Shown piece after piece: positions 6,809-40,220 of a DNA stretch of 64,000 bases (position 1 is the stretch's first letter; the number at the start of each line of letters is the position of its first letter). The position numbers and the translations under genes are program-made. The stretch comes from an uncultured Acidimicrobiales bacterium (GTDB lineage: Bacteria; Actinomycetota; Acidimicrobiia; Acidimicrobiales; UBA10347), in contig CALKPY010000002.1 in assembly GCA_937991435.1 (NCBI GenBank), positions 9,840 through 73,839 on the forward strand. Direction: 5' to 3'. A model generated the notes under the pieces. It saw nothing but the letters and a program-made list of their open reading frames with translations. It was not told where the DNA came from and ran no database searches.

Positions 6809-7507
6809 GTGATGATTCCCACTCGCCACGATCCTTTACCCACCGGGCAAGACAAGGTCGACAGCGTTCGCACACTGTTCGACACCATCGCACCTCGTTA
6901 CGACCTGGTGAACCGCATAATGACCTTTGGTCTCGACGTTCGTTGGCGCGACCGCACGATCAAGTCGCTCAGCCTGCCAGCTGGGTCAATCGTGGCTGAT
7001 CTTGCATGCGGAACTGGTGACTTCTGCCGGTCACTCGAAGCACAAAACATGCAGGTTCTCGGCTTTGATCTTGCTCTAGGCATGCTTGAACATGCCCGCA
7101 CTGAAGCCCCGCTGACCCAAGCCGATGTCTTGCACCTGCCGATCGCGAACGACAGCGTCGACGGTGTCACCTGCGGTTTCGCCCTTCGTAACTTCGTCGA
7201 ACTCGGCCCCTTCTTCACCGAGCTGGCGCGAGTCGTGCGCCCGGGCGGCCGGATCGCCCTGCTCGATGTCAGTCGGCCGTCTTCTCGTGTGCTTCGTGCA
7301 GGCTATGACATCTACTTTGGCCGCGTAGTGCCGCTGATCGGCGGCTTGCTGTCAAACGCCGACGCATACGGCTATCTGCCTCGGTCATTGTCATATCTGC
7401 CCGCGCCCGATCGCCTGCGATCCGATGTCACCGCTGCGGGCTTCAGTAACGTCGAACATCATCAGCTCAATGGTGGGCTCGTGCAGCTCATCACCGCAAC
7501 GGCGTAA
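6809..7507 (+). CDS. menG: Demethylmenaquinone methyltransferase (UbiE/MenG family)
   Basis: 232 aa with VRTLFDTIAPRYDLVNRIMTFGLDVRWR (UbiE signature) and SAM motif VADLACGTGD. Confidence 0.85.
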   Translation: MMIPTRHDPLPTGQDKVDSVRTLFDTIAPRYDLVNRIMTFGLDVRWRDRTIKSLSLPAGSIVADLACGTGDFCRSLEAQNMQVLGFDLALGMLEHARTEAPLTQADVLHLPIANDSVDGVTCGFALRNFVELGPFFTELARVVRPGGRIALLDVSRPSSRVLRAGYDIYFGRVVPLIGGLLSNADAYGYLPRSLSYLPAPDRLRSDVTAAGFSNVEHHQLNGGLVQLITATA

Positions 7508-26438: not shown

Positions 26439-27236
26439 TCAACAGCTTGCCCGACGAACGATGACAGGAACTGTCGGCGCCGAGAGTTTGAGCTCGTCGA
26501 GGCACGACAGGTCCACCTGTTCAATGAACGATCGCAGAGCTGCGTATTTCTCATCGAGCGCCCTGGCATCACCCAGCGAGGCAACGCCACCGCCCACGAG
26601 ACGAAGCGAAACCGAGTCGACGGTGAGCTCGATGCGTTCCGTCACAAACCGAAGATCAGCCGGTAGCGCTTCTGCAACAACGAGTGCGTCGACAAGTTCC
26701 GATGGCACGATGGTGCCAGGTGCGGCCGAAAACATTGCACCCGAAACCCAAGGGACCTCGACGGCAGAAACGACAGCGTCAAAGGAGACCTCTTCGATGA
26801 CGATGCCGTCGGAGTCGACGACGAGGGCACCATCGTTTGTGAGGAACTGCGCGGTCGGAACCCGTTCTTCGACGGTGATCGTCACGACCCCGTTCCACGA
26901 GCGTTCAACCGACGCATCAGCGACCAGGCGGGCTGCACCAACCGTCTGAGTCGCTGCGTCAAGGTCAAGGCCAAGCAGTGGGCTTCCGAGACGAACGCCA
27001 GACAACTCTCGGACGGTTTCGGGCGAGATCGACGATGCGCCGACGACGCGTACCTCGTCGACGTCGAGAGCCGGAGACTGCGTGAGTAAGGCCGCGACCG
27101 TCGCCACAGCAAGCACTGCGGCGATGGCGAGAGTCCATCGCCTGCGTGAGCGCTCGCTCTGATCGGCTACCTCCGCGCGTCGGGCGCGTATGCGCGGGTG
27201 TAGCGCAACCGGTGCGCTTGGCGTTATCGCGGTCAT
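26439..27236 (-). CDS. ftsQ: Cell division protein FtsQ (POTRA domain)
   Basis: 265 aa: basic N-terminus, single TM (WTLAIAAVLAVATVAALL), then POTRA-like VDEVRVVGASSISPETVRELSG. Canonical position upstream of ftsZ. Confidence 0.85.
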   Translation of the reverse strand: MTAITPSAPVALHPRIRARRAEVADQSERSRRRWTLAIAAVLAVATVAALLTQSPALDVDEVRVVGASSISPETVRELSGVRLGSPLLGLDLDAATQTVGAARLVADASVERSWNGVVTITVEERVPTAQFLTNDGALVVDSDGIVIEEVSFDAVVSAVEVPWVSGAMFSAAPGTIVPSELVDALVVAEALPADLRFVTERIELTVDSVSLRLVGGGVASLGDARALDEKYAALRSFIEQVDLSCLDELKLSAPTVPVIVRRASC

Positions 27237-29773
27237 CAGCTTGTTCCTTCACTATCTCGTGCGTCGTTATCTCGTGCGTCGTTTTGTACGCGTTGTGGCT
27301 TGTCGTGTACGACCGTGGGCTGGTCAACCGCGGTTTGGTCGGTCAGGCGGACATCGGTTCGTGTCTGGTTCGAGAAGCCAAGCAAGTGCGTCTCGCGACG
27401 AAGGGTTACTCCGTATTTGTCGGCCACCCGTTTTGAAACAGCAGCCATCAGTGCGAGTACGTCATCAGCGAACCCACCCGCGTCGACTTGAATAAAATTG
27501 GCATGCTTAGAGCTCACGACCGCAGTTCCGATTCGCAGCCCCTTGCATCCCGCAGCGTCGATCAATCGCCCTGCGGAGTCATCTGGCGGATTCGCAAAAA
27601 CCGATCCGGCGTTCTGTCCGCCTGGCTGATGCGTGCGTCGCCAGCGCACGATCTCCGATATGCGATCACGGCATTGTTGTTCGGGCGCACTGTGCAGTTG
27701 CAGCGACACTCGAAGCACAACGTCGCCGTCGGCGAGATTCGACGTCCGGTATCCGAGGTCGAGGTCGGCCGCTGGTTCGGTGCCGATGCCTCGCCCAGAG
27801 CGAAGAACCATGGCCGAGACAAGAGATGCCGCGAGATCGGACCCGTGTCCGCCAGCGTTCATTCGGACCGCTCCCCCAATGCTTCCGGGTACGCCGACGG
27901 CCCATTCGAAGCCCGTCATACCCGCTTGCGCCGTTCGGCGAGCAAGCAGCGGAAGCGCCACCGCTGAGCCAGCGGTTACCGCCATCGACTCAGTGTCGAA
28001 ATCCAGGTCGTGAAACTCGCCATCAAGAACGAGTGCGACGCCATCGAAACCGCTATCGGAAACCAATAGGTTCGAGCCACGCCCAACCGTTGCAACCTCG
28101 AGCCCCATTGCCTGGGCCGAGTCGAGAACGAGCTCAACGTCGCGACTCGTCGTCGCCGTGGCGACAAGGGCGGCGCTGCCTCCACACCGATAGGTCGTGC
28201 GTGCTCCGAGTTCGCCATCACGTGCCAACTCGCCTGCGAAGCCGTCGGAGTGCAGGTCTGCTACGAGAGCATCGAACAGGCTTCGGCGATCGCCGTTTTC
28301 ACCGCGACGGACAGCCGCAGGAGATTGTGGAACCTTCGTCGTGGTTGTCCGTGTAATCAGTTCCTGCACGACTGGCGGCACCGTTGTCAGGTCTCCCGCT
28401 CCGAGGGTCAGGCAGAGGTCGCCGGGCTGGAGAATCTCCGCGAGCGTGGTAGCCACATCGTCGAGCGTTGGGGTGTAACGCACATCATCGTTGGGGCGCT
28501 CCGAACGAACTGCGTCGAAGACAATACGACCGTCTACGCCATCGACCGGATGCTCGCCTGCCGGATAAATGTCGGTTAGCAACGTGATATCAGCGTCGGC
28601 AAACGAGCGAGCAAACGAGGCACCGATCTTGGCCGTACGACTAAAGCGGTGGGGCTGATAGGCGCACACGATGCGCTGCCAACTCCCCGACCGCGCCGCG
28701 CTCAGCGCGGCCTCGACCTCGGCCGGGAGATGGGCGTAGTCATCGACAAAATCGACTCCGTTGAGCGAGCCCCTGGGTTCGAAGCGGCGGCTCACGCCTG
28801 AGAACTCCGATACGGCCAGGGCCGCTGAAGCCAGTGGAACGCCAAGCGCCACCGCAATGGCGACAGCGCCTGCAGCGTTGAGGGCATTGTGGGTGCCCGG
28901 TACCGCCAGGTGAACCTGGGCACGGGAGCCTGCATATTCGACGTTGAAACGCTGACCGAGACCGTCGCTTCTCCGACCCGCAATCACAACGTCCGCGTCA
29001 GCTCGCTGACCGTACGTAACAACATTGTTGGCTTCGAGCAGGCATGCGGCATCCGAGTCGTCAACGCACAGAGCCACGGGCCCATCGACACGGTCGACAA
29101 ATACAGCGAACGCGTCTTGCATCGCTTGCACCGATCCGTAAAAGTCGAGATGATCTGGGTCAAGCGAGGTAACGATTGCGGCGACGGCGTCGAGAACCAG
29201 AAATGTGCCGTCACTTTCGTCAGCCTCGATTACTGACCACGGGCCATCGCTCCACCGGGCGCCCGTGCCGAATCGTTCGACGTCCGCGCCAATAATGAAC
29301 GACGGCGCGTGACCGCACGCCTCGAGAAGCACCGCAAGCATTGATGACGTTGTCGTTTTGCCGTGAGTTCCGGCGACAAGGATCGCCGGGCGCACAGAGG
29401 CGATAGCAGCAAGAATCTCCGCTCGATCAAAAACTGTCACCGCCGCGCCGCGTGCCGCGACGACTTCGGGGTTCGTATCTGGAACAGCGGTAGATCGAGC
29501 CACGACGACGTCGCTACCGAACGTGGTTCGTTCGTGGCCGTCTGCGATCGGAATGCCGAGCTGTTGCAGGCGCTCGGTATGAGCCGTCGTTGCCATGTCT
29601 GAGCCCGATACATGGTGACCCATTTCGTGCAGCACACGAGCGATTGCTCGCATTCCTGCGCCACCGACGCCGACCAGATGCACTTCACGCGGGCGCGAAA
29701 GATCAATCGAGCGGACCGCCGGTCGTAGCTGGTCGATCAGTTCTTGGCGTACTTCTTGGCGTTCAGTCGACAC
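27236..29773 (-). CDS. murC: Bifunctional MurC (UDP-MurNAc:L-Ala ligase, about aa 1-473, nt 28355-29773) fused to MurB (UDP-GlcNAc-enolpyruvate reductase, about aa 498-845, nt 27239-28282)
   Basis: One uninterrupted 845-codon ORF. MurC motifs: HLVGVGGAGM, VAGTHGKTTTSSM, DDYAHLPAEV. MurB motifs: TTYRCGGSAALV, GRGSNLLVSDSGFDG, SSKHANFIQ. Confidence 0.9.
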   Translation of the reverse strand: MSTERQEVRQELIDQLRPAVRSIDLSRPREVHLVGVGGAGMRAIARVLHEMGHHVSGSDMATTAHTERLQQLGIPIADGHERTTFGSDVVVARSTAVPDTNPEVVAARGAAVTVFDRAEILAAIASVRPAILVAGTHGKTTTSSMLAVLLEACGHAPSFIIGADVERFGTGARWSDGPWSVIEADESDGTFLVLDAVAAIVTSLDPDHLDFYGSVQAMQDAFAVFVDRVDGPVALCVDDSDAACLLEANNVVTYGQRADADVVIAGRRSDGLGQRFNVEYAGSRAQVHLAVPGTHNALNAAGAVAIAVALGVPLASAALAVSEFSGVSRRFEPRGSLNGVDFVDDYAHLPAEVEAALSAARSGSWQRIVCAYQPHRFSRTAKIGASFARSFADADITLLTDIYPAGEHPVDGVDGRIVFDAVRSERPNDDVRYTPTLDDVATTLAEILQPGDLCLTLGAGDLTTVPPVVQELITRTTTTKVPQSPAAVRRGENGDRRSLFDALVADLHSDGFAGELARDGELGARTTYRCGGSAALVATATTSRDVELVLDSAQAMGLEVATVGRGSNLLVSDSGFDGVALVLDGEFHDLDFDTESMAVTAGSAVALPLLARRTAQAGMTGFEWAVGVPGSIGGAVRMNAGGHGSDLAASLVSAMVLRSGRGIGTEPAADLDLGYRTSNLADGDVVLRVSLQLHSAPEQQCRDRISEIVRWRRTHQPGGQNAGSVFANPPDDSAGRLIDAAGCKGLRIGTAVVSSKHANFIQVDAGGFADDVLALMAAVSKRVADKYGVTLRRETHLLGFSNQTRTDVRLTDQTAVDQPTVVHDKPQRVQNDARDNDARDSEGTS
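27254..27283 (-). repeat. Perfect 15-bp tandem duplication (ATCTCGTGCGTCGTT x2) inside the 3' tail of murC::murB
   Basis: Read directly. In frame; encodes NDARD-NDARD in the non-conserved C-terminal tail. Confidence 0.95.
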
Positions 29774-30899
29774 GAGCGTGTTCCATAACCAGATCGGCGA
29801 TCAACGATGCCGCGTCAGGGCGACCTTGGGTGCGGGCGGCAGTACTTATCGCCTGCAGACGTTCGACGTCACCGGCGAGCTCATCGATCAGTTCGACAAG
29901 CCGTTCAGACGTCATCTCACCGTCGGGAACCAGAACGGCTCCTTCTCGATCGCTCAACGCACGTGCGTTGAGCGTCTGGTGATCGCCTGGCGCGCCAGGT
30001 AGCGGTATCAGCACGGCAGGCGTTCCGGTCAAAGCGATCTCGGCCACCGATGTAGCACCGGCACGACAGACCAAGAGGTCAGCGGCGCCATAGACATGAT
30101 GCATTGCCTGCTCATACTCAATACTCACGTATTCAAGGGAGCCCAGACGTTCGTTGTTGCCGTAGTCATCCCAGTCTCGGGATCCAACGATGTGCCGAAT
30201 CGAAAGGTCTGGGCGATCTGCGATGGCCGGCAGCGCACCGACTACGGCTTTGTTGATGGATCGTGCACCCAACGACCCACCGAAGACCACGACCAGGCGG
30301 CGGTTGCCCGACACGCCTAGCGCGGCTCGTGATGCGCTTCGATCGCGGGCTCTGTTCACGGTGGCGACGTCAGATCGAGCCGGGTTGCCCGTGTGGACAG
30401 CGTTGGGTAGGTCGGTGCCATCGAACGACACGGCGCATGCCTTGGCCCACTTCGACGCCAGCCGATTCGCAGCGCCTGGCACTGCGTTCTGCTCCATAAC
30501 GACCACCGGCACGCCGACAAGACGAGCAGCGACCGCAGCGGGGGCGCTCGCGTAGCCACCAACCGAGATCAGCACGTTCGGACGCATGCGGCGCAACGCT
30601 CGAACGGCCATGACGAGGGCCTTGCCGAGCGCGAGACCGGAACGCAGGTTCTCGACGCTGAGTCGGCGAACGATGCCCCGCCCCGGAAGCAAGGTCAGCG
30701 GGTAGCCGTGTTCTGGCACGACAGTCTTTTCAAGACCACGTTCGCTTCCGATGAAATGGACCGATTGAGCTTCGTAGCCACGGCGCACGAGTTCATCGGC
30801 AATTGCTAGGGCGGGGTGCACGTGTCCTGCGGTGCCGCCACCCGCGATCACTGCCCAAACGTCGGTTGTCTTGCGCCGGGTTGACATACGAGTGGCCAT
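29763..30899 (-). CDS. murG: UDP-GlcNAc:lipid I GlcNAc transferase MurG
   Basis: AGGGTAGHVHPALAIADEL N-terminal G-loop and GAGTSVAEI-like ATSVAEIALTGTPAVLIP. Start trimmed to ATG 30899, which forms TAATG with the ftsW stop; the longest ORF (to 31238) overlaps ftsW. Confidence 0.92.
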   Translation of the reverse strand: MATRMSTRRKTTDVWAVIAGGGTAGHVHPALAIADELVRRGYEAQSVHFIGSERGLEKTVVPEHGYPLTLLPGRGIVRRLSVENLRSGLALGKALVMAVRALRRMRPNVLISVGGYASAPAAVAARLVGVPVVVMEQNAVPGAANRLASKWAKACAVSFDGTDLPNAVHTGNPARSDVATVNRARDRSASRAALGVSGNRRLVVVFGGSLGARSINKAVVGALPAIADRPDLSIRHIVGSRDWDDYGNNERLGSLEYVSIEYEQAMHHVYGAADLLVCRAGATSVAEIALTGTPAVLIPLPGAPGDHQTLNARALSDREGAVLVPDGEMTSERLVELIDELAGDVERLQAISTAARTQGRPDAASLIADLVMEHARVD

Positions 30900-32101: not shown

Positions 32102-33426
32102 TGTGTAGTTCCTTGTGGCGTCAGGTTCTTTACGCAGGCGGTGAAGTCGTCGCCCCGTGCTCGATAGTTCAGATACCAGTCGTACGACGCGCATGCTGGC
32201 GAGAGCAGCACGGTGTCGCCGCGTTGAGAGATCGCGTGGGCCGTAGCGACGGCCTCGGCCATTGATCCGGCGGTCGTCGAATCGACGTCGACTCCAAACG
32301 CGTCGATCATCACATCTCCGGCTTCGCCGATAGCGATCAGATGTCGTACCCGCGTCGCGAGCGCCGAAAGCCCAGACAGATCGAGTCCCTTGTTTCGTCC
32401 GCCGGCGATAAGGATCACTGATTCCATAGCACCGAGTGCTGCTTCGGTTGCGTGGGGCGTGGTCGCTTTTGAGTCGTTGATCCAGCGAACTCCGCCGTGA
32501 TCTGCAATCAGTTCGGCTCGATGCGGCAGTCCGGTGAACTCTCGAGCAATGCTGGCTACCGAATCGCGATCAGCGCCGGCAGCCAGCGCACAAGCTGCTG
32601 CAGCCAAGATGTTGGCAATATCGTGCGGCAGGTTTCGCTGTAGCTCCGAACGAGCGACGAGTGCTTCCCCTCCAACAATCAGCGTGTCGCCGACGAGTCC
32701 GTGATCACCGCGTGCATCAGCGCCAAACGTCTGCAACCCCGGTGTATCCGGAGAGGCATGGCGCATCACCGTCGGGTCGTCGCGGTTTGCCACTCGAACC
32801 CCCGGTGACGTTGACCGATGCCATAGAGATGCCTTTGCTGCTTCGTAGTCTTCGAGCGTCGCGTGGGCGTCGAGGTGGTCCGGCCCGAAGTTGATCCAGG
32901 CGGCAACAGCGGGAGCGAATGTCGCACTGTGCCCCAGGCGAAACGACGAGGCCTCGACGACAAAGGTCTCCCACGACGAGTCCTCGATTGCGGAGACGAC
33001 TGGCACATCGGTATTTCCCACGGCCGCTGCTGCGATTCCGGCTCGGTTCAGCATGCGTTCGATCAGCGTGACCACCGTGGTTTTGCCGTCGGTCCCGGTG
33101 ACGGCGATCATCGGCCGGTCGTCCCACATCTGGGCAAGATCCAACTCGCTTCGAGTGGGGGTGCCGACCGCGCGGGCGAGTTCGAATACTTCGTGATGGT
33201 CAGGCAGGCCGGGCGCGGGCAGGAGTGCATCGGCCGCAGCGACGGCGGCCTTAAGCGCTGCTGTCGTAGGAACGGTCACCGTGACACCGCTCGATTGGGA
33301 CCAAGCGATCAATTGCTCAGTCATATTGTCGTCAAACGCGACGACCTCGACGTCTCGGGCGATCAACGCGTCGGCTACGGCTCGCCCGGTAATTCCCATA
33401 CCCATTGTCACAACACGGCGCATCAC
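32098..33426 (-). CDS. murD: UDP-MurNAc-L-Ala:D-Glu ligase
   Basis: 442 aa with Mur-ligase P-loop VTGTDGKTTV, MurD-type N-terminal Rossmann fold GMGITGRAVA, and DSKATTPHA motif. Confidence 0.92.
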   Translation of the reverse strand: MMRRVVTMGMGITGRAVADALIARDVEVVAFDDNMTEQLIAWSQSSGVTVTVPTTAALKAAVAAADALLPAPGLPDHHEVFELARAVGTPTRSELDLAQMWDDRPMIAVTGTDGKTTVVTLIERMLNRAGIAAAAVGNTDVPVVSAIEDSSWETFVVEASSFRLGHSATFAPAVAAWINFGPDHLDAHATLEDYEAAKASLWHRSTSPGVRVANRDDPTVMRHASPDTPGLQTFGADARGDHGLVGDTLIVGGEALVARSELQRNLPHDIANILAAAACALAAGADRDSVASIAREFTGLPHRAELIADHGGVRWINDSKATTPHATEAALGAMESVILIAGGRNKGLDLSGLSALATRVRHLIAIGEAGDVMIDAFGVDVDSTTAGSMAEAVATAHAISQRGDTVLLSPACASYDWYLNYRARGDDFTACVKNLTPQGTTQ

Positions 33427-34460
33427 TCGACCGACCCTGGAATCGACAGAAAGTCGGCATAAAAAAGGCCAAGCGCCATCGCAGATGCGAAGCCGGCCAT
33501 GAGCCAGAACCTGATGATCACGCGGGTCTCAGGCCATCCGAGCAATTCGAAGTGGTGATGAATAGGGGCCATGCGAAATACCCGAGTGCCGCGCAGCCGA
33601 TACACCGCGACCTGAATGATCACCGACACTGTTTCGCTGACGAACAACGCACCGAGAATCGGCAGCAAGAGATGCGTGTTGGTGGCGAGTGCCAATGCTG
33701 CCAAACCTGCGCCGAGAGCGAGACTGCCGGTGTCGCCCATAAAGATCTGTGCCGGAGCTGCGTTCCACCAGAGGAAGCCAGCGCACGCGCCAACACCTGC
33801 GGCGGCGATGACCGCAACATCGAGCGCATGGGGAACGTCGTAGATATCAAGATTGCCAAACATCCAAAAGGCCATAGCTGTGAAACACGAGTACGCAAAC
33901 AGCGAGGCGCCACTGGCAAGCCCGTCGAGGCCATCGGTCAGGTTCACTGCGTTACTCGTGCCGACAATCAACAACACAGCCCAGATACACCACCCGATGG
34001 GTCCGAGATCAAAGCCAATTGAGTCCCACCTTGTAAACGACAACTCGGTGTGTACGTCGGTGGTGGTCACCATCAAAACGGCGAACGCCAACGCGACACC
34101 GATCTGCCCAAGCAATTTGGCGCGAGCCGAAAGGCCGAGGTTGCGAACCTTGCCGATCTTTATCCAGTCATCGAGGAAACCGATCAACGCGGAACCGACG
34201 ATCACCGCGAGCACCAGCAACCCGGTGCGGGTGTAAATGCCGTTGTACAAGTCACTGATCACATAAGCGGCGACGATGCCGACAACGATGGCGATTCCGC
34301 CCATCGTCGGTGTTCCGGCCTTGGTCTCGACATGACTCTGGACTCCGTCGGACTGGATCGGTTGAGCGAACTTGTGTCTACCGAGCCAGCTAATCAGAAA
34401 ACGTGTGGTTACCAACGTGACTGTCAGACTGATAGCGACGGCGAGAAGTAGTCGAATCAT
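33423..34460 (-). CDS. mraY: Phospho-MurNAc-pentapeptide translocase
   Basis: 345 aa, polytopic. Motifs KAGTPTMGG, NAVNLTDGLDGLA and MAPIHHHFEL. Confidence 0.95.
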   Translation of the reverse strand: MIRLLLAVAISLTVTLVTTRFLISWLGRHKFAQPIQSDGVQSHVETKAGTPTMGGIAIVVGIVAAYVISDLYNGIYTRTGLLVLAVIVGSALIGFLDDWIKIGKVRNLGLSARAKLLGQIGVALAFAVLMVTTTDVHTELSFTRWDSIGFDLGPIGWCIWAVLLIVGTSNAVNLTDGLDGLASGASLFAYSCFTAMAFWMFGNLDIYDVPHALDVAVIAAAGVGACAGFLWWNAAPAQIFMGDTGSLALGAGLAALALATNTHLLLPILGALFVSETVSVIIQVAVYRLRGTRVFRMAPIHHHFELLGWPETRVIIRFWLMAGFASAMALGLFYADFLSIPGSVE

Positions 34461-35875
34461 GTCGACCGCTCCGCGAGTAGTTCACTTGCAACGGTGACAT
34501 CATCAAAGTCGAAAACGTCGGTGCCAATCGTCTGGGTTCGTTCATGTCCTTTGCCAGCGATGAGAACCACATCACCGGGGCCTGCTAGCGCCAGACCAGC
34601 AGCGATAGCGGCTTGGCGTTCGGTGATGAGTTCAACGTTGGCGCGTTGTTCTAGACCCGAGGCGGCTTCAGCGATGATCGCGTCTGGGTCTTCGCTTCGT
34701 GGATTGTCCGACGTGATGATCACGATGTCTGCTCCCTCTTCGGCAGCGCGCGCCATCATCGGACGTTTCGAGCGATCCCGGTCACCGCCGCAGCCGAAGA
34801 TAATGATGCGCTTGCCGCCGGGGTTTGTGGCGGCGATCGACGAGAGAGCTCGCTGAATGGCGTCGGGCGTGTGCGAGTAGTCGACGAAGACCGTCGGAGC
34901 ATTTCCGCCAGAACCGGGCACGATCTGCATGCGTCCGGCAACCGGCGCGCTGGCGGTGACGCCATCAGCTGCCTGAGACTCAGTGAGCCCTATAGACAAC
35001 GCTGCTTCGGCGGCCATCACGGCGTTGGCGACGTTCATGCGACCCGGCAGCGGCACCGTCATTTGCTGGCCCCGCCAGGTGACCTCAGTATCGGTCACGG
35101 TCGCGTTCAGCACAGACACTTCAGCAAGAGTCACACGATGTGCGGCTGGTCGTCGATCGGCGAGGCGTTGCCCCCACGGATCGTCGACATTGATCAATTC
35201 GTGCAGCGCTCGCCCATCGAACAGACGCGCTTTGGCCTCGAAATACGCATCGATGTTGCCGTGGTAGTTCAGGTGGTCGGGCGTCAAGTTCGTAAATGCC
35301 GCTACCGAGAACGCAGTCGCGTCGACACGTGCTTGATCGAGCGCATGTGACGAAACCTCAATAGCAACTGTGTCAGCGCCGTCGGCGACCATCGCAGCCA
35401 GCCGGCGTTGCAACTCAGTCGCTTCGGGCGTCGTTCGGGTACCTGACAACGTGCCGATCGTCTCAACACGTCGGCCTGCCGACTTGACGACATCGGCGAA
35501 CAGAGAGGTTGTGGTCGTCTTGCCGTTGGTTCCCGTGATCCCGAAGAGTGTGAGCTTCTTGCTCGGGTGCGAGTGAGCTGCGGCAGAGAACGGCCCGAGC
35601 GCCCGTCGAACGTTGTCGGTCCGAATCTGGGGGACCTCGATTGGCAGCCACCGCTCAACAAGCAGTGCCGTCGCGCCTGCGGCAACAGCCGCTTCGGCAT
35701 AGGCGTGTCCATCGGTGACGGCGCCGCCGAACGCGGCGAATAGGCAACCAGGTGACACCTGGCGAGAGTCATGTTCGACATCACCGACGGGTATTGGGAT
35801 CGCGCCGACCAATCTGGTTTCGAGCGCGAGGTTCTTCCCAACTTCGGCAACCAGCGTCTGGATCGACGGACTCAT
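34457..35875 (-). CDS. murE: UDP-MurNAc-L-Ala-D-Glu:meso-diaminopimelate ligase (MurE, not MurF)
   Basis: GITGTNGKTTTTS P-loop, DYSHTPDAIQRAL, GCGGDRDRSKRPMM and the DAP-specifying DNPR motif (ITSDNPRSEDP). ATGA overlaps with ftsI on one side and mraY on the other. Confidence 0.9.
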   Translation of the reverse strand: MSPSIQTLVAEVGKNLALETRLVGAIPIPVGDVEHDSRQVSPGCLFAAFGGAVTDGHAYAEAAVAAGATALLVERWLPIEVPQIRTDNVRRALGPFSAAAHSHPSKKLTLFGITGTNGKTTTTSLFADVVKSAGRRVETIGTLSGTRTTPEATELQRRLAAMVADGADTVAIEVSSHALDQARVDATAFSVAAFTNLTPDHLNYHGNIDAYFEAKARLFDGRALHELINVDDPWGQRLADRRPAAHRVTLAEVSVLNATVTDTEVTWRGQQMTVPLPGRMNVANAVMAAEAALSIGLTESQAADGVTASAPVAGRMQIVPGSGGNAPTVFVDYSHTPDAIQRALSSIAATNPGGKRIIIFGCGGDRDRSKRPMMARAAEEGADIVIITSDNPRSEDPDAIIAEAASGLEQRANVELITERQAAIAAGLALAGPGDVVLIAGKGHERTQTIGTDVFDFDDVTVASELLAERST

Positions 35876-37998
35876 GGCGCTCCGCCATCGGTGAGCGCCT
35901 GAGCCTGATCGGTCGAAGTTGTCGGGTCGACAGCGCCATCAGCAGACGACGACATATCAGTCGAAGCCTGCGCCGCAACTGGGTCTTGGGTCACGTCCGC
36001 TGTTGGTTGCTCGGCAGATTCGCTCACGACTTCTGCCGTTGCCGCCGCCGGGGTCGCGGCTTCAGCTGCGACTCCGGTAACTCGCGGTTCGAGTCGGGCA
36101 GGTATCGATGGCACCCCCCAGGGGGTCACGAGGTTGACCTCAGTCGGCGGTGCAATGCGGAAGTGGCGCATTGCATACGACGCGATGTCAGCAAAGGCTG
36201 GGGCCGCGGCGGTACCTGCGTAGAACGTCGCGGTTGGTTCGTCGATGGTTACGAGTATCGAAAGTTCGGGTTGATCTGCAGGAAGGAAGCCAACGAAGCT
36301 CGACACGTAATGGAAGTTTCCCGCCGCGTCTTCGTAACCAGCGCGTTCGCCGATTGGCTTGCGAGCGGTGCCCGTTTTACCCGCGACGCGGTAGCCCTCG
36401 ATTTGGGCGTTTGTGCCGGTACCGACCGACACGGCGTTCTCGAGCATGCTGCGAACGTCAGCCGCAGTCTGGGCGCTGATAACTGGTCGCGGCTCAGCGC
36501 TTTGTGGAACGGTACGTGTGCCGTCGCTGTCAACGGTTTCGTTTACGAGTTGCAGCGGAACGTAGCGACCTCCATTGGCGATGACGTTGTAGGCAGTGAT
36601 CATCTGAGCCGGCGTAACAGTCACGCCCTGGCCGAGCGACGTGGTGGCGGTAGCAATGCCGCCCCAACGGCCCGGCTCGATCAATAGTCCAGCAGTCTCA
36701 CCGGGAAATCCGAGACCTTGAACCGAGCCAAAACCAAAACTGCGGAGATACGCGTCGAGCAGTTCGCCGCCCAACCGCTCGCCCCACAAAACAGTTCCAA
36801 CGTTTGATGAAACGGTCATGATGTCGGCAAGCGACCAATCCGCTACACCGTGCGCAGTCGTATCTGTGAAGACCGCGTCGTACAACTCATAGGTATCGGG
36901 AACAGGCATCAATGTGGTGGGGTCAGCCAGACCTGCGTCGATGATCGCGGCAAAGGTCATCGCCTTCATGACCGACCCCGGCTCAAACGACCACGAAGTC
37001 GCCATGTTGAGTGAGGGGGCAATGAGCTCGCCCTGGTCGTTGCGGGTCACACTCGCCATGGCGAGGACCTCGCCGGTTTCGGGTTTCGACACGATGACGA
37101 CGCCGCCTTTGGCGCCCATCTCTGCGACCTGACGCGTGAGCACTCGTTCAACTTCGAACTGCAACGACTGGTCGATTGTCAGGTAAAGATCGTGTCCTGG
37201 CTCGGCCGGTTCCACAAGTTCTGGTGCTCCGGGAATCGTTGCGCCGTTGACACCGATCTCAATCAGAAGTTCGCCACCGCGCCCTTCGAGAACCGGATTG
37301 TGTATCGACTCGACTCCGCTCAGGCCTTTTCCGTCGATGTCGACGTTGCCGATGACCGCCCGAGCGAGGTCTTCGCCGCTCGGATGGTGGCGTCGAGGTT
37401 CCTCTGTGGTGAACACGCCGGGTATATCAAGCGCAAGAATCTGTGCTGCCTGTGAATCGGAGACTTGTCGGGCTATCCACGCGAATCGTCCTTCGCCAGC
37501 CATTCGTTCGCGTACGGTTTCCACGTCAAGACCAACGAGCGGCGCCAGCTTGGTCGCGTCGCGCACAGGGTCTTCGACAAACTTGGGATCGACGAAGAAC
37601 GAGGTACTCGGCAGCGACACGGCCAGCGCACTGCCTCCTCGGTCATAGATATCTCCCCTACCGCCAGCGAGTTGGACTGTGCGGAATCGTTGCTGTCGAC
37701 CAATCTCGACGAACGCAGCGGCGTCTCGAAGCTGCAGGTCGACAAGCCGGTACACGAGCCCGCCGGCCACCACGCTCATGACCAAGAGTACGGCAAGGAG
37801 CCGCCGAGCGAGATCTGGCGGCGCTCCCACCGTTGCGCTCGGTGCCAGGCGACGACCCGCGACTCGACGTCGCTGCTTAGCGTTGGTAGTGGACTCGCGT
37901 GCTGTACGTCGAGAGGTATTGCGCGTGCGTTCAGCCGCTGCTCTACGGTCTTTCGCGGGTTTGGGCGCGGCCGGACGGCGTCGCAACGTTGCGGTCAT
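35872..37998 (-). CDS. ftsI: Class B penicillin-binding protein (FtsI/PBP3-type transpeptidase)
   Basis: SxxK (GSVMKAM), SxN (SSNVG) and KTGT (AGKTGTA) motifs. Basic cytoplasmic N-tail plus a single TM. Low-complexity Ala/Thr/Ser-rich C-terminal tail. Confidence 0.92.
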   Translation of the reverse strand: MTATLRRRPAAPKPAKDRRAAAERTRNTSRRTARESTTNAKQRRRVAGRRLAPSATVGAPPDLARRLLAVLLVMSVVAGGLVYRLVDLQLRDAAAFVEIGRQQRFRTVQLAGGRGDIYDRGGSALAVSLPSTSFFVDPKFVEDPVRDATKLAPLVGLDVETVRERMAGEGRFAWIARQVSDSQAAQILALDIPGVFTTEEPRRHHPSGEDLARAVIGNVDIDGKGLSGVESIHNPVLEGRGGELLIEIGVNGATIPGAPELVEPAEPGHDLYLTIDQSLQFEVERVLTRQVAEMGAKGGVVIVSKPETGEVLAMASVTRNDQGELIAPSLNMATSWSFEPGSVMKAMTFAAIIDAGLADPTTLMPVPDTYELYDAVFTDTTAHGVADWSLADIMTVSSNVGTVLWGERLGGELLDAYLRSFGFGSVQGLGFPGETAGLLIEPGRWGGIATATTSLGQGVTVTPAQMITAYNVIANGGRYVPLQLVNETVDSDGTRTVPQSAEPRPVISAQTAADVRSMLENAVSVGTGTNAQIEGYRVAGKTGTARKPIGERAGYEDAAGNFHYVSSFVGFLPADQPELSILVTIDEPTATFYAGTAAAPAFADIASYAMRHFRIAPPTEVNLVTPWGVPSIPARLEPRVTGVAAEAATPAAATAEVVSESAEQPTADVTQDPVAAQASTDMSSSADGAVDPTTSTDQAQALTDGGAP

Positions 37999-38456
37999 TG
38001 ACTGCCTCGTAGCTGAGCTGACGCGACTCGAAGCACGCGATCGTCGAGTTCCGCTGGGCTTCCTTGCAGATACACGACGGCAGGCGCCTCGATCATGCCC
38101 AACGTCTTTGCCTCACGCACGATGCGGGCCGGGGCTTCGAGCTGTGCGAGTTCGAGACTGAGTATCTGGGCTTCGACCTCAAGGGTCGCTATCTGGCGGT
38201 TTCGTTCGTCGAGGTCATGTTGACGTTCGATGATCTTGGCGTGGAGCACGAGCCCACCCACGAGGCCGATCACGACCGTTACCGCAAGGGTGGTGCCGAG
38301 AAATCGCACAAGTCGGCTGGCCATGCTGACGCCACCGTCGATCACCCGGAACGAGCGCGTCGCGCGTTGATCGACAGGATCACTATGTCCCGGTTGTGCG
38401 TGGTCGGGGTCGGCAAGCACCGCGGCACTGCCGAAACGGTCGAATGTGATGGTCAT
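37995..38456 (-). CDS. ftsL: FtsL-like septation protein (single TM plus coiled coil)
   Basis: 153 aa with TM segment FLGTTLAVTVVIGLVGGLVL followed by a heptad-like region. Canonical slot between rsmH and ftsI, with 4-nt overlaps on both sides. Confidence 0.7.
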   Translation of the reverse strand: MTITFDRFGSAAVLADPDHAQPGHSDPVDQRATRSFRVIDGGVSMASRLVRFLGTTLAVTVVIGLVGGLVLHAKIIERQHDLDERNRQIATLEVEAQILSLELAQLEAPARIVREAKTLGMIEAPAVVYLQGSPAELDDRVLRVASAQLRGSQ

Positions 38457-39566: not shown

Positions 39567-39677
39567 ATTGGGGGGTGATTTTGGTGAGGTTTGAGGTCTC
39601 AGTTGTTCTTTCGTGGTGAGTGTTGTGTCGTTCCGCTGTTCCGCAGGTTTGCGGTACGCCGGTGACGCCGGCGGGCA

Positions 39678-40100
39678 TCACAGCAGATTGGAGATGTCGG
39701 GCAGCTCATCGAGGGCGGCGTCTGGGCTGGTGACTTCGGCAGCAAAGACGGCGAGATGGTTGGCAACGCCAACAATTGTTGCGTCTTTGTCGAGGTCAGC
39801 CCAGGTGCGAAGTCGGTCGGGCACGTTGATGCGACCTTGTGAGTCGATTGGCGACTGAGCGATTGCAGCCATGACGTTGGTGAGCTGTTTCTGAGTGAGC
39901 TTTCCGTCGCGCTTGGCCTGCTGCAGGCGATCGACCATTCCCCTAAATGCTTCGGCTGGGTAAACGCTGAGGCAGTGTTGATTGATTTCGGGAACGATGA
40001 AACAGACCTGCTCTTCAGCAAATGCGTCACGAAAGACGGCGGGTAGCGCCAATCGTCCTTTGGCATCAATGCGATGCGTATGTGAGCCGTAGAAGTCCAC
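39678..40100 (-). CDS. mraZ: Transcriptional regulator MraZ
   Basis: 140 aa. MDFYGSHTHRIDAKGRLALPAVFR and a second DxxGR repeat (PIDSQGRINVPDRLR). GTG start. First gene of the dcw cluster. Confidence 0.95.
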   Translation of the reverse strand: MDFYGSHTHRIDAKGRLALPAVFRDAFAEEQVCFIVPEINQHCLSVYPAEAFRGMVDRLQQAKRDGKLTQKQLTNVMAAIAQSPIDSQGRINVPDRLRTWADLDKDATIVGVANHLAVFAAEVTSPDAALDELPDISNLL

Positions 40101-40220
40101 AGGGTCTTATCCATCCGTGCGAGAAGGCGCTGCTTCGCCCCGTCACGGCCTGATGTCTGAATCTTGAAAACCACGGTTGGTCCTCCTGATGTCATAGGCA
40201 AGCCGCTTACTCAACATTGA

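Follow-up and report, generated by a model that had tools for sequence, protein, structure and literature searches.

The window (the whole 64-kb stretch of DNA analysed) contains one uninterrupted open reading frame (ORF) whose 845-residue product consists of a complete MurC at the N-terminus and a complete MurB at the C-terminus. The protein is very likely a bifunctional peptidoglycan-precursor enzyme that, to judge from sequence comparisons, was fused in an Acidimicrobiia-type lineage independently of the fusion in Verrucomicrobia. It represents a known fusion design in a new lineage and not a new design. Among the best matches listed in a literature search, no paper describes a MurC-MurB fusion in the Acidimicrobiia lineage. 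What appears to be new, and is modest, is the independent actinobacterial origin of the fusion and its inheritance through a clade of ten sequences; the finding does not alter how peptidoglycan synthesis is currently understood. The coordinates of the gene, its modules and its neighbours are listed in Table 1.

Table 1. The murC-murB fusion gene, its modules and the flanking genes, in positions of the window.
Feature	Position	Strand	Basis or description
murC-murB fusion gene	27236..29773	minus	845 codons and TGA stop at 27236-27238
MurC module, residues 1-479, with C-terminal helix 461-480	28337..29773	minus	Pfam, NCBIfam and solved-structure alignment
Flexible linker, residues 480-491	28301..28336	minus	AF2 pLDDT < 50
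Type II (short) MurB module (by sequence), residues 492-802, N-terminal helix 494-509	27368..28300	minus	Pfam, NCBIfam and solved-structure matches
Disordered, non-conserved C-terminal tail, residues 803-845	27239..27367	minus	pLDDT 32-45
murG, directly upstream	29763..30899	minus	Pfam Glyco_transf_28 and Glyco_tran_28_C; 378-residue gene call
ftsQ, directly downstream	26439..27236	minus	POTRA_1 domain

The ORF starts with GTG and has no internal stop codons in the ORF listing. Five Pfam domains were matched above their gathering scores, namely Mur_ligase (residues 30–126), Mur_ligase_M (133–307) and Mur_ligase_C (329–460) in the MurC half, and FAD_binding_4 (535–651) and MurB_C (701–797) in the MurB half. 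Of the NCBIfam models, TIGR01082 (murC) matches residues 31–465 with 427.7 bits (cutoff 335.1) and TIGR00179 (murB) matches residues 526–799 with 173.9 bits (cutoff 144.5), and the alternative MurB model NF010480 scores 258.7, just under its cutoff of 259. The Pfam domains and the two TIGR models bear out the original prediction that both enzymes are complete within a single ORF. The motifs that it quoted (GVGGAGM, AGTHGKTTT, DDYAHLP, TTYRCGGSA and SSKHANFIQ), the linker TRTTTTKVPQSPAAVRRGENG and the MurB stretch GRGSNLLVSDSGFDG are all present in the translation.

Solved MurC structures align to residues 25–467 of the fusion (E=3e-87). The MurC motifs GTHGKTT (P-loop, residues 135–141), EADESD (182–187, including E183/D185/E186), DDYAH (344–348) and QPHR (373–376), as well as H208, show no or almost no variation across 31 fused homologues. 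The top solved matches of the MurB half are 4pyt, 2gqt and 1hsk, which, together with 3tx1, are matched over the full length with E-values of 1e-34 to 1e-47; E. coli-type MurB structures match the FAD domain only (E about 1e-11). By these matches, the MurB half is of type II (short) and not of the E. coli-like type I. Residues R676, S724 and E794 correspond in the 1hsk alignment to Arg188, Ser238 and Glu308 of S. aureus MurB, which we take from the established MurB literature to be the catalytic Arg/Ser/Glu. The loss of essential MurB residues that the original prediction had held out as a possible refutation was thus not seen: all three are retained here and are invariant in the 31 diverged fused homologues, as are the FAD-binding motifs.

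It is very unlikely that one half is dead or repurposed, for example with MurB serving as a scaffold, while a separate murB or murC elsewhere supplies the activity. Such a loss might be suspected from the near miss of NF010480 and from the MurB/C fusion of V. spinosum, the only such fusion studied so far, whose MurB activity could not be demonstrated in vitro; the same fusion, however, complements both murB and murC mutants of E. coli in vivo (Naqvi et al. 2016, PMC4803751). The search for further copies covered the 64-kb window; within it there was no second murB or murC, and one weak Mur-ligase paralogue match is murE. The TIGR00179 score and the conservation of the motifs of both halves also argue against it. 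In the favored interpretation, both halves are active: the C-terminal MurB would convert UDP-GlcNAc-enolpyruvate to UDP-MurNAc with FAD and NADPH, and the N-terminal MurC would then add L-alanine to UDP-MurNAc with ATP. These are consecutive cytoplasmic steps of peptidoglycan synthesis, as originally noted.

The ORF is flanked by murG and ftsQ, each of which it overlaps, in agreement with its predicted location in the dcw cluster. The TGA stop of murG falls 11 nt within the murC-murB ORF (junction GTGTCGACTGA), and the ATG of ftsQ and the murC-murB stop share one base (TGATG). Fused relatives from other samples keep this gene context. For comparison, the best 80 of at least 599 pattern matches in species-representative genomes were used, a set that does not include the window's own genome, and each locus was classed as fused or split from the tblastn frame of each half and a check for stop codons; per-taxon frequencies drawn from these matches are no census. 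Among the best 80 loci, murB directly follows murC in 47, and it does so in all seven of the Acidimicrobiia-type split relatives. The expectation that murB lies elsewhere in actinobacterial clusters holds for Actinomycetes, as at the loci of Nonomuraea (L045) and Kribbella (L065), where murC has no adjoining murB, but fails for the Acidimicrobiia type.

Acidimicrobiia, Coriobacteriia and many Proteobacteria carry murC and murB side by side in their dcw clusters as two distinct genes. The spacing in split relatives is very short or overlapping, and a separate stop and start yield two polypeptides. The nearest split sequences among the matches listed, L001 (the closest, 52%/57% identity) and L006 (49%/56% identity), have the same murG-murC-murB-ftsQ order as the window. 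The L001 junction consists of TGA, six codons and ATG in a single frame. A further locus, L012, was rejected as a fusion, its apparent continuity being due to a chance absence of stops in an off-frame of the high-GC DNA.

The ancestral state in the Acidimicrobiia-type lineage would have been an adjacent murC and murB, tightly coupled within the dcw operon, and fusion would have followed when the stop codon of murC disappeared together with the very short spacer. Since murB normally lies directly downstream of murC in this lineage, fusion needs the loss of one stop codon only, and because it would have joined adjacent genes, the MurC-first order of the polypeptide reflects the order of the genes and not that of the reactions. 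We infer that selection favours the fusion because the two consecutive steps are then co-expressed at a fixed 1:1 ratio and co-localised; the fusion possibly also raises the local concentration of UDP-MurNAc.

The V. spinosum fusion, to which the original prediction ascribed the opposite domain order, in fact has the same one, with the MurC residues N-terminal and the MurB residues C-terminal (PMC4803751). Not one of the 150 best representatives of clusters at 50% identity has the MurB-to-MurC order. The V. spinosum and window proteins agree in their five Pfam domains and in how these are ordered; they are similar in size (770 versus 845 residues), and the gap between Mur_ligase_C and FAD_binding_4 is comparable (about 100 versus 75 residues). 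Their sequence identity is ~33–39%, so that the V. spinosum protein is no closer to the window protein than split proteobacterial genes are. The 2016 paper reported the fusion in Verrucomicrobia lineages only (PMC4803751), whereas the window fusion belongs to Acidimicrobiia-type Actinomycetota.

A neighbour-joining tree with bootstrap (710 columns) places fused and split members together in an Acidimicrobiia-type clade with 99% support, while monophyly of all fused sequences and a grouping of Acidimicrobiia with Verrucomicrobiota, as a common fused ancestor would have it, each receive 0%. A tree of MurB only has lower resolution. The tree thus shows the actinobacterial and verrucomicrobial fusions as most probably independent in origin, with the same architecture reached by convergence. 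The clade of the window protein comprises 10 sequences, all fused (99% bootstrap), which have diverged to about 45–55% identity; within it, the fusion is old and inherited throughout. It offers a clean case of convergence, in which an identical arrangement of neighbouring genes gave rise to one type of Mur fusion separately in different phyla, with one relative a single stop codon away.

That same relative raises the question of a sequencing or assembly artefact, in which a missed stop codon or an indel joined adjacent genes, as a single base error in such a locus could mimic a fusion; moreover, the exact sequence was found in one sample only. An artefact is nevertheless extremely unlikely. 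A second assembly (a Logan contig, run ERR9287622) also encodes the identical 845-residue product, and every member of the ten-sequence clade, drawn from other samples, is fused. Across the linker, only the frame of the ORF is open, the other two carrying stops, and first codon positions are GC-rich in the linker as they are in the rest of the ORF. The search of relatives for the same fusion yielded about 60 diverged homologues from other samples (41–54% identity) with the same five domains in a single polypeptide, two of them encoded on long contigs (505 kb and 372 kb). On both of these, the fused ORF is intact even though the gene calls of neighbours such as murG, mraY and murE are truncated or fragmented.

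The AF2 model of the fusion has a mean pLDDT of 88.2, with values mostly above 90 in the MurC module and disorder confined to the linker and the C-terminal tail. In the model, a disordered linker of ~12 residues, the sole internal stretch of such low confidence, joins two confidently folded bodies and is flanked by two helices. In the family alignment, the linker region is weakly conserved and varies in length, and the C-terminal tail is missing or dissimilar in most homologues. The spacer, measured between the equivalents of residues 466 and 518, is 51 residues here, compared to a median of 30 and a range of 5–78 in 98 fused representatives. The pTM of 0.61 indicates no confident packing between the domains, and no MurC-MurB chain was found among solved structures.

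These features bear on whether the fusion could be a true channelling device, with facing active sites that pass UDP-MurNAc from MurB to MurC and bypass the bulk cytoplasm. The two steps are consecutive, many family members have nearly no spacer, and the helices on either side of the linker could constrain the geometry in the manner of the MurE-MurF structure (PMC10214165). Channelling is plausible, but on balance it is unlikely to be what the fusion exists for. Spacer length is widely spread and the inter-domain packing is not confident; furthermore, the domain order mirrors the gene order and no MurB-to-MurC fusion was found among the 150 representatives, so that opportunistic read-through fits better than selection for geometry. 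Fusions of non-consecutive Mur enzymes (MurG-MurC, MurC-Ddl) are equally common (PMC10214165), and channelling is therefore not required to explain Mur fusions. The ~12-residue linker, with the near-zero spacers of some homologues, might make the Acidimicrobiia enzyme a better structural model of MurB-to-MurC transfer than the V. spinosum protein. The short-spacer members could also help to test whether fusing consecutive Mur steps yields channelling.

The preferred explanation, a bifunctional enzyme formed by joining neighbouring genes, has parallels among other Mur chimeras, which include MurE-MurF (Bordetella, structure solved), MurC-Ddl (Chlamydia) and MurG-MurC (Actinobacteria) (Shirakawa et al. 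2023, PMC10214165). As in MurC-MurB, each of these unites neighbouring dcw genes with the gene order preserved; the steps united are consecutive in MurC-MurB but not in MurG-MurC or MurC-Ddl. Such chimeras have been proposed to fix stoichiometry, to stabilise a Mur complex or to raise the local concentration of intermediates (PMC10214165). The fusion type is both known and widespread among environmental bacteria, accounting for 98 of the 150 cluster representatives and for 11% of the Mur chimeras in UniProt (PMC10214165), which leaves the original observation intact but removes most of the novelty attached to it.

MurG-MurC-MurB triple fusions of about 1155–1210 residues exist among metagenomic proteins. 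It is conceivable, though rather doubtful, that the dcw fusions form a recurrent graded series, from separate genes through genes one stop codon apart to MurC-MurB and finally MurG-MurC-MurB; in that case, the enzymes MurG, MurC and MurB of these bacteria would be physically associated while acting at the membrane. Among the 25 NCBIfam families listed, models exist for MurC/Ddl and MurE/MurF bifunctional proteins and none for MurC/MurB, so that metabolic reconstructions from Acidimicrobiia metagenome-assembled genomes can wrongly call murB missing. In IMG annotation, the fusion already carries a bifunctional name.

The murC-murB gene is one uninterrupted ORF with a GTG start. All five MurC and MurB domains expected of it scored above the Pfam gathering score, and its two halves match the NCBIfam equivalogs of murC and murB. 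The original prediction of both enzymes in a single 845-residue ORF is thus confirmed as stated; the motifs quoted in its support were all found in the translation, and its annotation of the gene is correct.

Coordinates of the murC-murB gene, its domains and the dcw features discussed
Feature	Window position (strand)	Residues	Remark
murC-murB	27236-29773 (-)	845 aa	
Mur_ligase		30-126	Pfam
Mur_ligase_M		133-307	Pfam
Mur_ligase_C		329-460	Pfam
murC equivalog		31-465	TIGR01082, 427.7 bits (cutoff 335.1)
Linker		480-491	pLDDT <50
FAD_binding_4		535-651	Pfam
MurB_C		701-797	Pfam
murB equivalog		526-799	TIGR00179, 173.9 bits (cutoff 144.5)
C-terminal tail	27239-27367 (-)	803-845	pLDDT <50
mraY	33423-34460 (-)		
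murE	34457-35875 (-)		TIGR01085, 430 bits
ftsI	35872-37998 (-)		between murE and ftsL-sized ORF
ftsI-mraY interval	33423-37998		sole Mur ligase is MurE
ftsL-position ORF	37995-38456 (-)	153 aa	no Pfam match at E<=1e-5
ORF upstream of rsmH	39599-40201 (-)	200 aa	no Pfam match at E<=1e-5; no MraZ domain

An assembly or sequencing artefact is a very improbable source of the fusion, given that a separately assembled Logan contig of run ERR9287622 encodes the identical product, which an independent gene caller likewise reads as one 845-residue gene, and that the linker is open only in the frame of the ORF, with stops in both other frames. The codon-position GC pattern of the ORF also runs on through the linker. 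The artefact reading is further opposed by some 60 clusters in a large protein database whose polypeptide has the same five domains (41-54% identity, many samples), by the conservation of both halves in an alignment of 31 fused homologues, and by the intact ORFs (777 and 806 residues) of two fused relatives from other samples, the metagenomic proteins P0004 and P0044, whose contigs are 505 kb and 372 kb long. On these contigs the gene calls for neighbors such as murG, mraY and murE are truncated or fragmented.

Along its entire length the MurC half can be aligned with solved MurC structures (E=3e-87), and its P-loop GTHGKTT (residues 135-141), EADESD, H208, DDYAH and QPHR vary little or not at all across the fused family. 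The full length of the MurB half matches structures of the type II (short) form of the enzyme (4pyt, 2gqt and 1hsk), whereas its match to E. coli-type MurB structures is confined to the FAD domain. By residue count in the 1hsk alignment, R676, S724 and E794, invariant in all 31 fused homologues, correspond to Arg188, Ser238 and Glu308 of S. aureus MurB, which we take from the established MurB literature to be the catalytic residues.

An AlphaFold2 model built on the alignment of the 31 homologues has a mean pLDDT of 88.2, with values below 50 only in the linker and the C-terminal tail; the linker is predicted to be flanked by the C-terminal helix of MurC (461-480) and the N-terminal helix of MurB (494-509). 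With a pTM of 0.61 and no confidence estimate between domains, the model does not show how the active sites lie relative to each other. No single chain in the PDB spans both halves. The tail, 43 acidic and polar residues predicted to be disordered, stops exactly at the ftsQ start; it is missing from most homologues, and a few of them, P0003, P0012 and P0019, carry a comparably long tail with RGES at its end.

The gene lies in a compact minus-strand dcw cluster with the order rsmH, ftsL-sized ORF, ftsI, murE, mraY, murD, ftsW, murG, murC-murB, ftsQ and ftsZ, followed by Cu-oxidase_4 (PgeF-like) and Ala_racemase_N (YggS-like) genes, sepF, yggT and divIVA. The murG stop falls 11 nt within the murC-murB ORF, and the TGA of the latter shares one base with the ftsQ ATG (TGATG). 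Gene order around the fusion is the same in P0004 and P0044, and the 64-kb window contains no second murB or murC. As a separate observation, murF is absent from its canonical dcw slot in the window, between ftsI and mraY, and none of ten other window ORFs of 378-490 residues is a Mur ligase; the single-ligase arrangement also occurs in fused relatives from two other samples (loci L082 and L083).

The architecture itself is already characterized and widespread; new here are the lineage and the independent origin. The V. spinosum 'MurB/C' enzyme, given in the original prediction as a fusion of opposite order, in fact has the same domain order as the window protein: despite its name, its N-terminal part is MurC and its C-terminal part MurB, and some 100 residues separate the two sets of domains (Naqvi et al. 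2016, PMC4803751). It complements both E. coli mutants, murB(ts) and murC(ts), in vivo. Its MurC activity was seen in vitro, MurB activity was not demonstrable in vitro, and the fusion was found in Verrucomicrobia only (PMC4803751). In a later survey by Shirakawa et al. 2023 (PMC10214165), MurC-MurB makes up 11% of annotated UniProt Mur chimeras and is 'concentrated in Verrucomicrobia'. No paper among those listed for fused murB and murC mentions the Acidimicrobiia lineage. Two fused homologues already carry a bifunctional product name in IMG, whereas the NCBI name of another gives the ligase alone.

Of the best 150 cluster representatives (50% identity) from a library of 1.84 billion proteins, 98 carry the fusion in the MurC→MurB order and none in the MurB→MurC order. 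MurB acts before MurC in the pathway; the polypeptide follows the gene order, murC before murB, because it probably originated from adjacent genes. In a scan of species-representative genomes, the best 80 loci among the matches listed, which are not a taxon census, were sorted by the frame in which each half is read and by where the murC stop lies. Five are truly fused (four Verrucomicrobiota, one Solirubrobacterales), 47 have murC directly followed by murB (nine share a frame that a stop interrupts, and in 38 the frames differ), 27 have murC only, including the Actinomycetes Nonomuraea and Kribbella, and in one murB is distant or not classified. All seven Acidimicrobiia-type relatives among these loci have adjacent murC and murB. 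At the junction (7340-7440) of the closest of the matches listed, an Acidimicrobiales MAG (L001, contig JBDNHK010000057.1; 52% MurC and 57% MurB identity), CGA TCG TGA is followed by six sense codons and ATG in a single frame, and one substitution there would yield a fusion like that of the murC-murB gene. This locus represents a stage before fusion or, alternatively, a fused gene that has split again. Eight further listed loci, from other phyla, have an in-frame stop between same-frame murC and murB.

With the MurC and MurB regions joined into one alignment, a neighbor-joining tree (47 sequences, 710 columns, 200 bootstraps) recovered an Acidimicrobiia-type clade of mixed fused and split sequences, including the window protein, with 99% support. 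Monophyly of all fused sequences and a grouping of the Acidimicrobiia-type with Verrucomicrobiota each received 0%, so the actinobacterial and verrucomicrobial fusions are convergent. The window protein groups with nine other fused sequences (99%), and within this clade of its own the fusion is inherited and was kept through divergence to about 45-55% identity. Fused and split forms are interleaved in the wider Acidimicrobiia-type clade, so fusion or fission has happened more than once; the tree does not tell which.

Three elements make up the best-supported account: a bifunctional enzyme in which the MurB module would make the UDP-MurNAc used by the MurC module, creation of the fusion through stop loss between two already coupled genes, and its retention for fixed 1:1 expression and proximity. 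Possible benefits discussed in the survey are stoichiometry, complex stabilization and local intermediate concentration (PMC10214165). Direct channeling from MurB to MurC, as suggested in the original prediction, is possible because short spacers are common (median 30 residues, minimum 5, in 98 fused representatives). It is not required, however, as spacers range from 5 to 78 residues, the predicted inter-domain geometry is not confident, and Mur fusions joining non-consecutive enzymes are just as frequent (PMC10214165).

Outside the window, the metagenomic proteins P0059, P0133, P0142 and P0199 (about 1155-1210 residues) are MurG-MurC-MurB triple fusions, with Pfam Glyco_transf_28 and Glyco_tran_28_C ahead of the five MurC/MurB domains; this combination is not among the chimeras in the available text of the Shirakawa et al. 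2023 survey (PMC10214165). MurG-MurC double fusions are represented by P0206, P0231, P0247 and P0268, the Pfam check covering P0206. The P0059 cluster contains five full-length members of 1185 residues, from several contigs.
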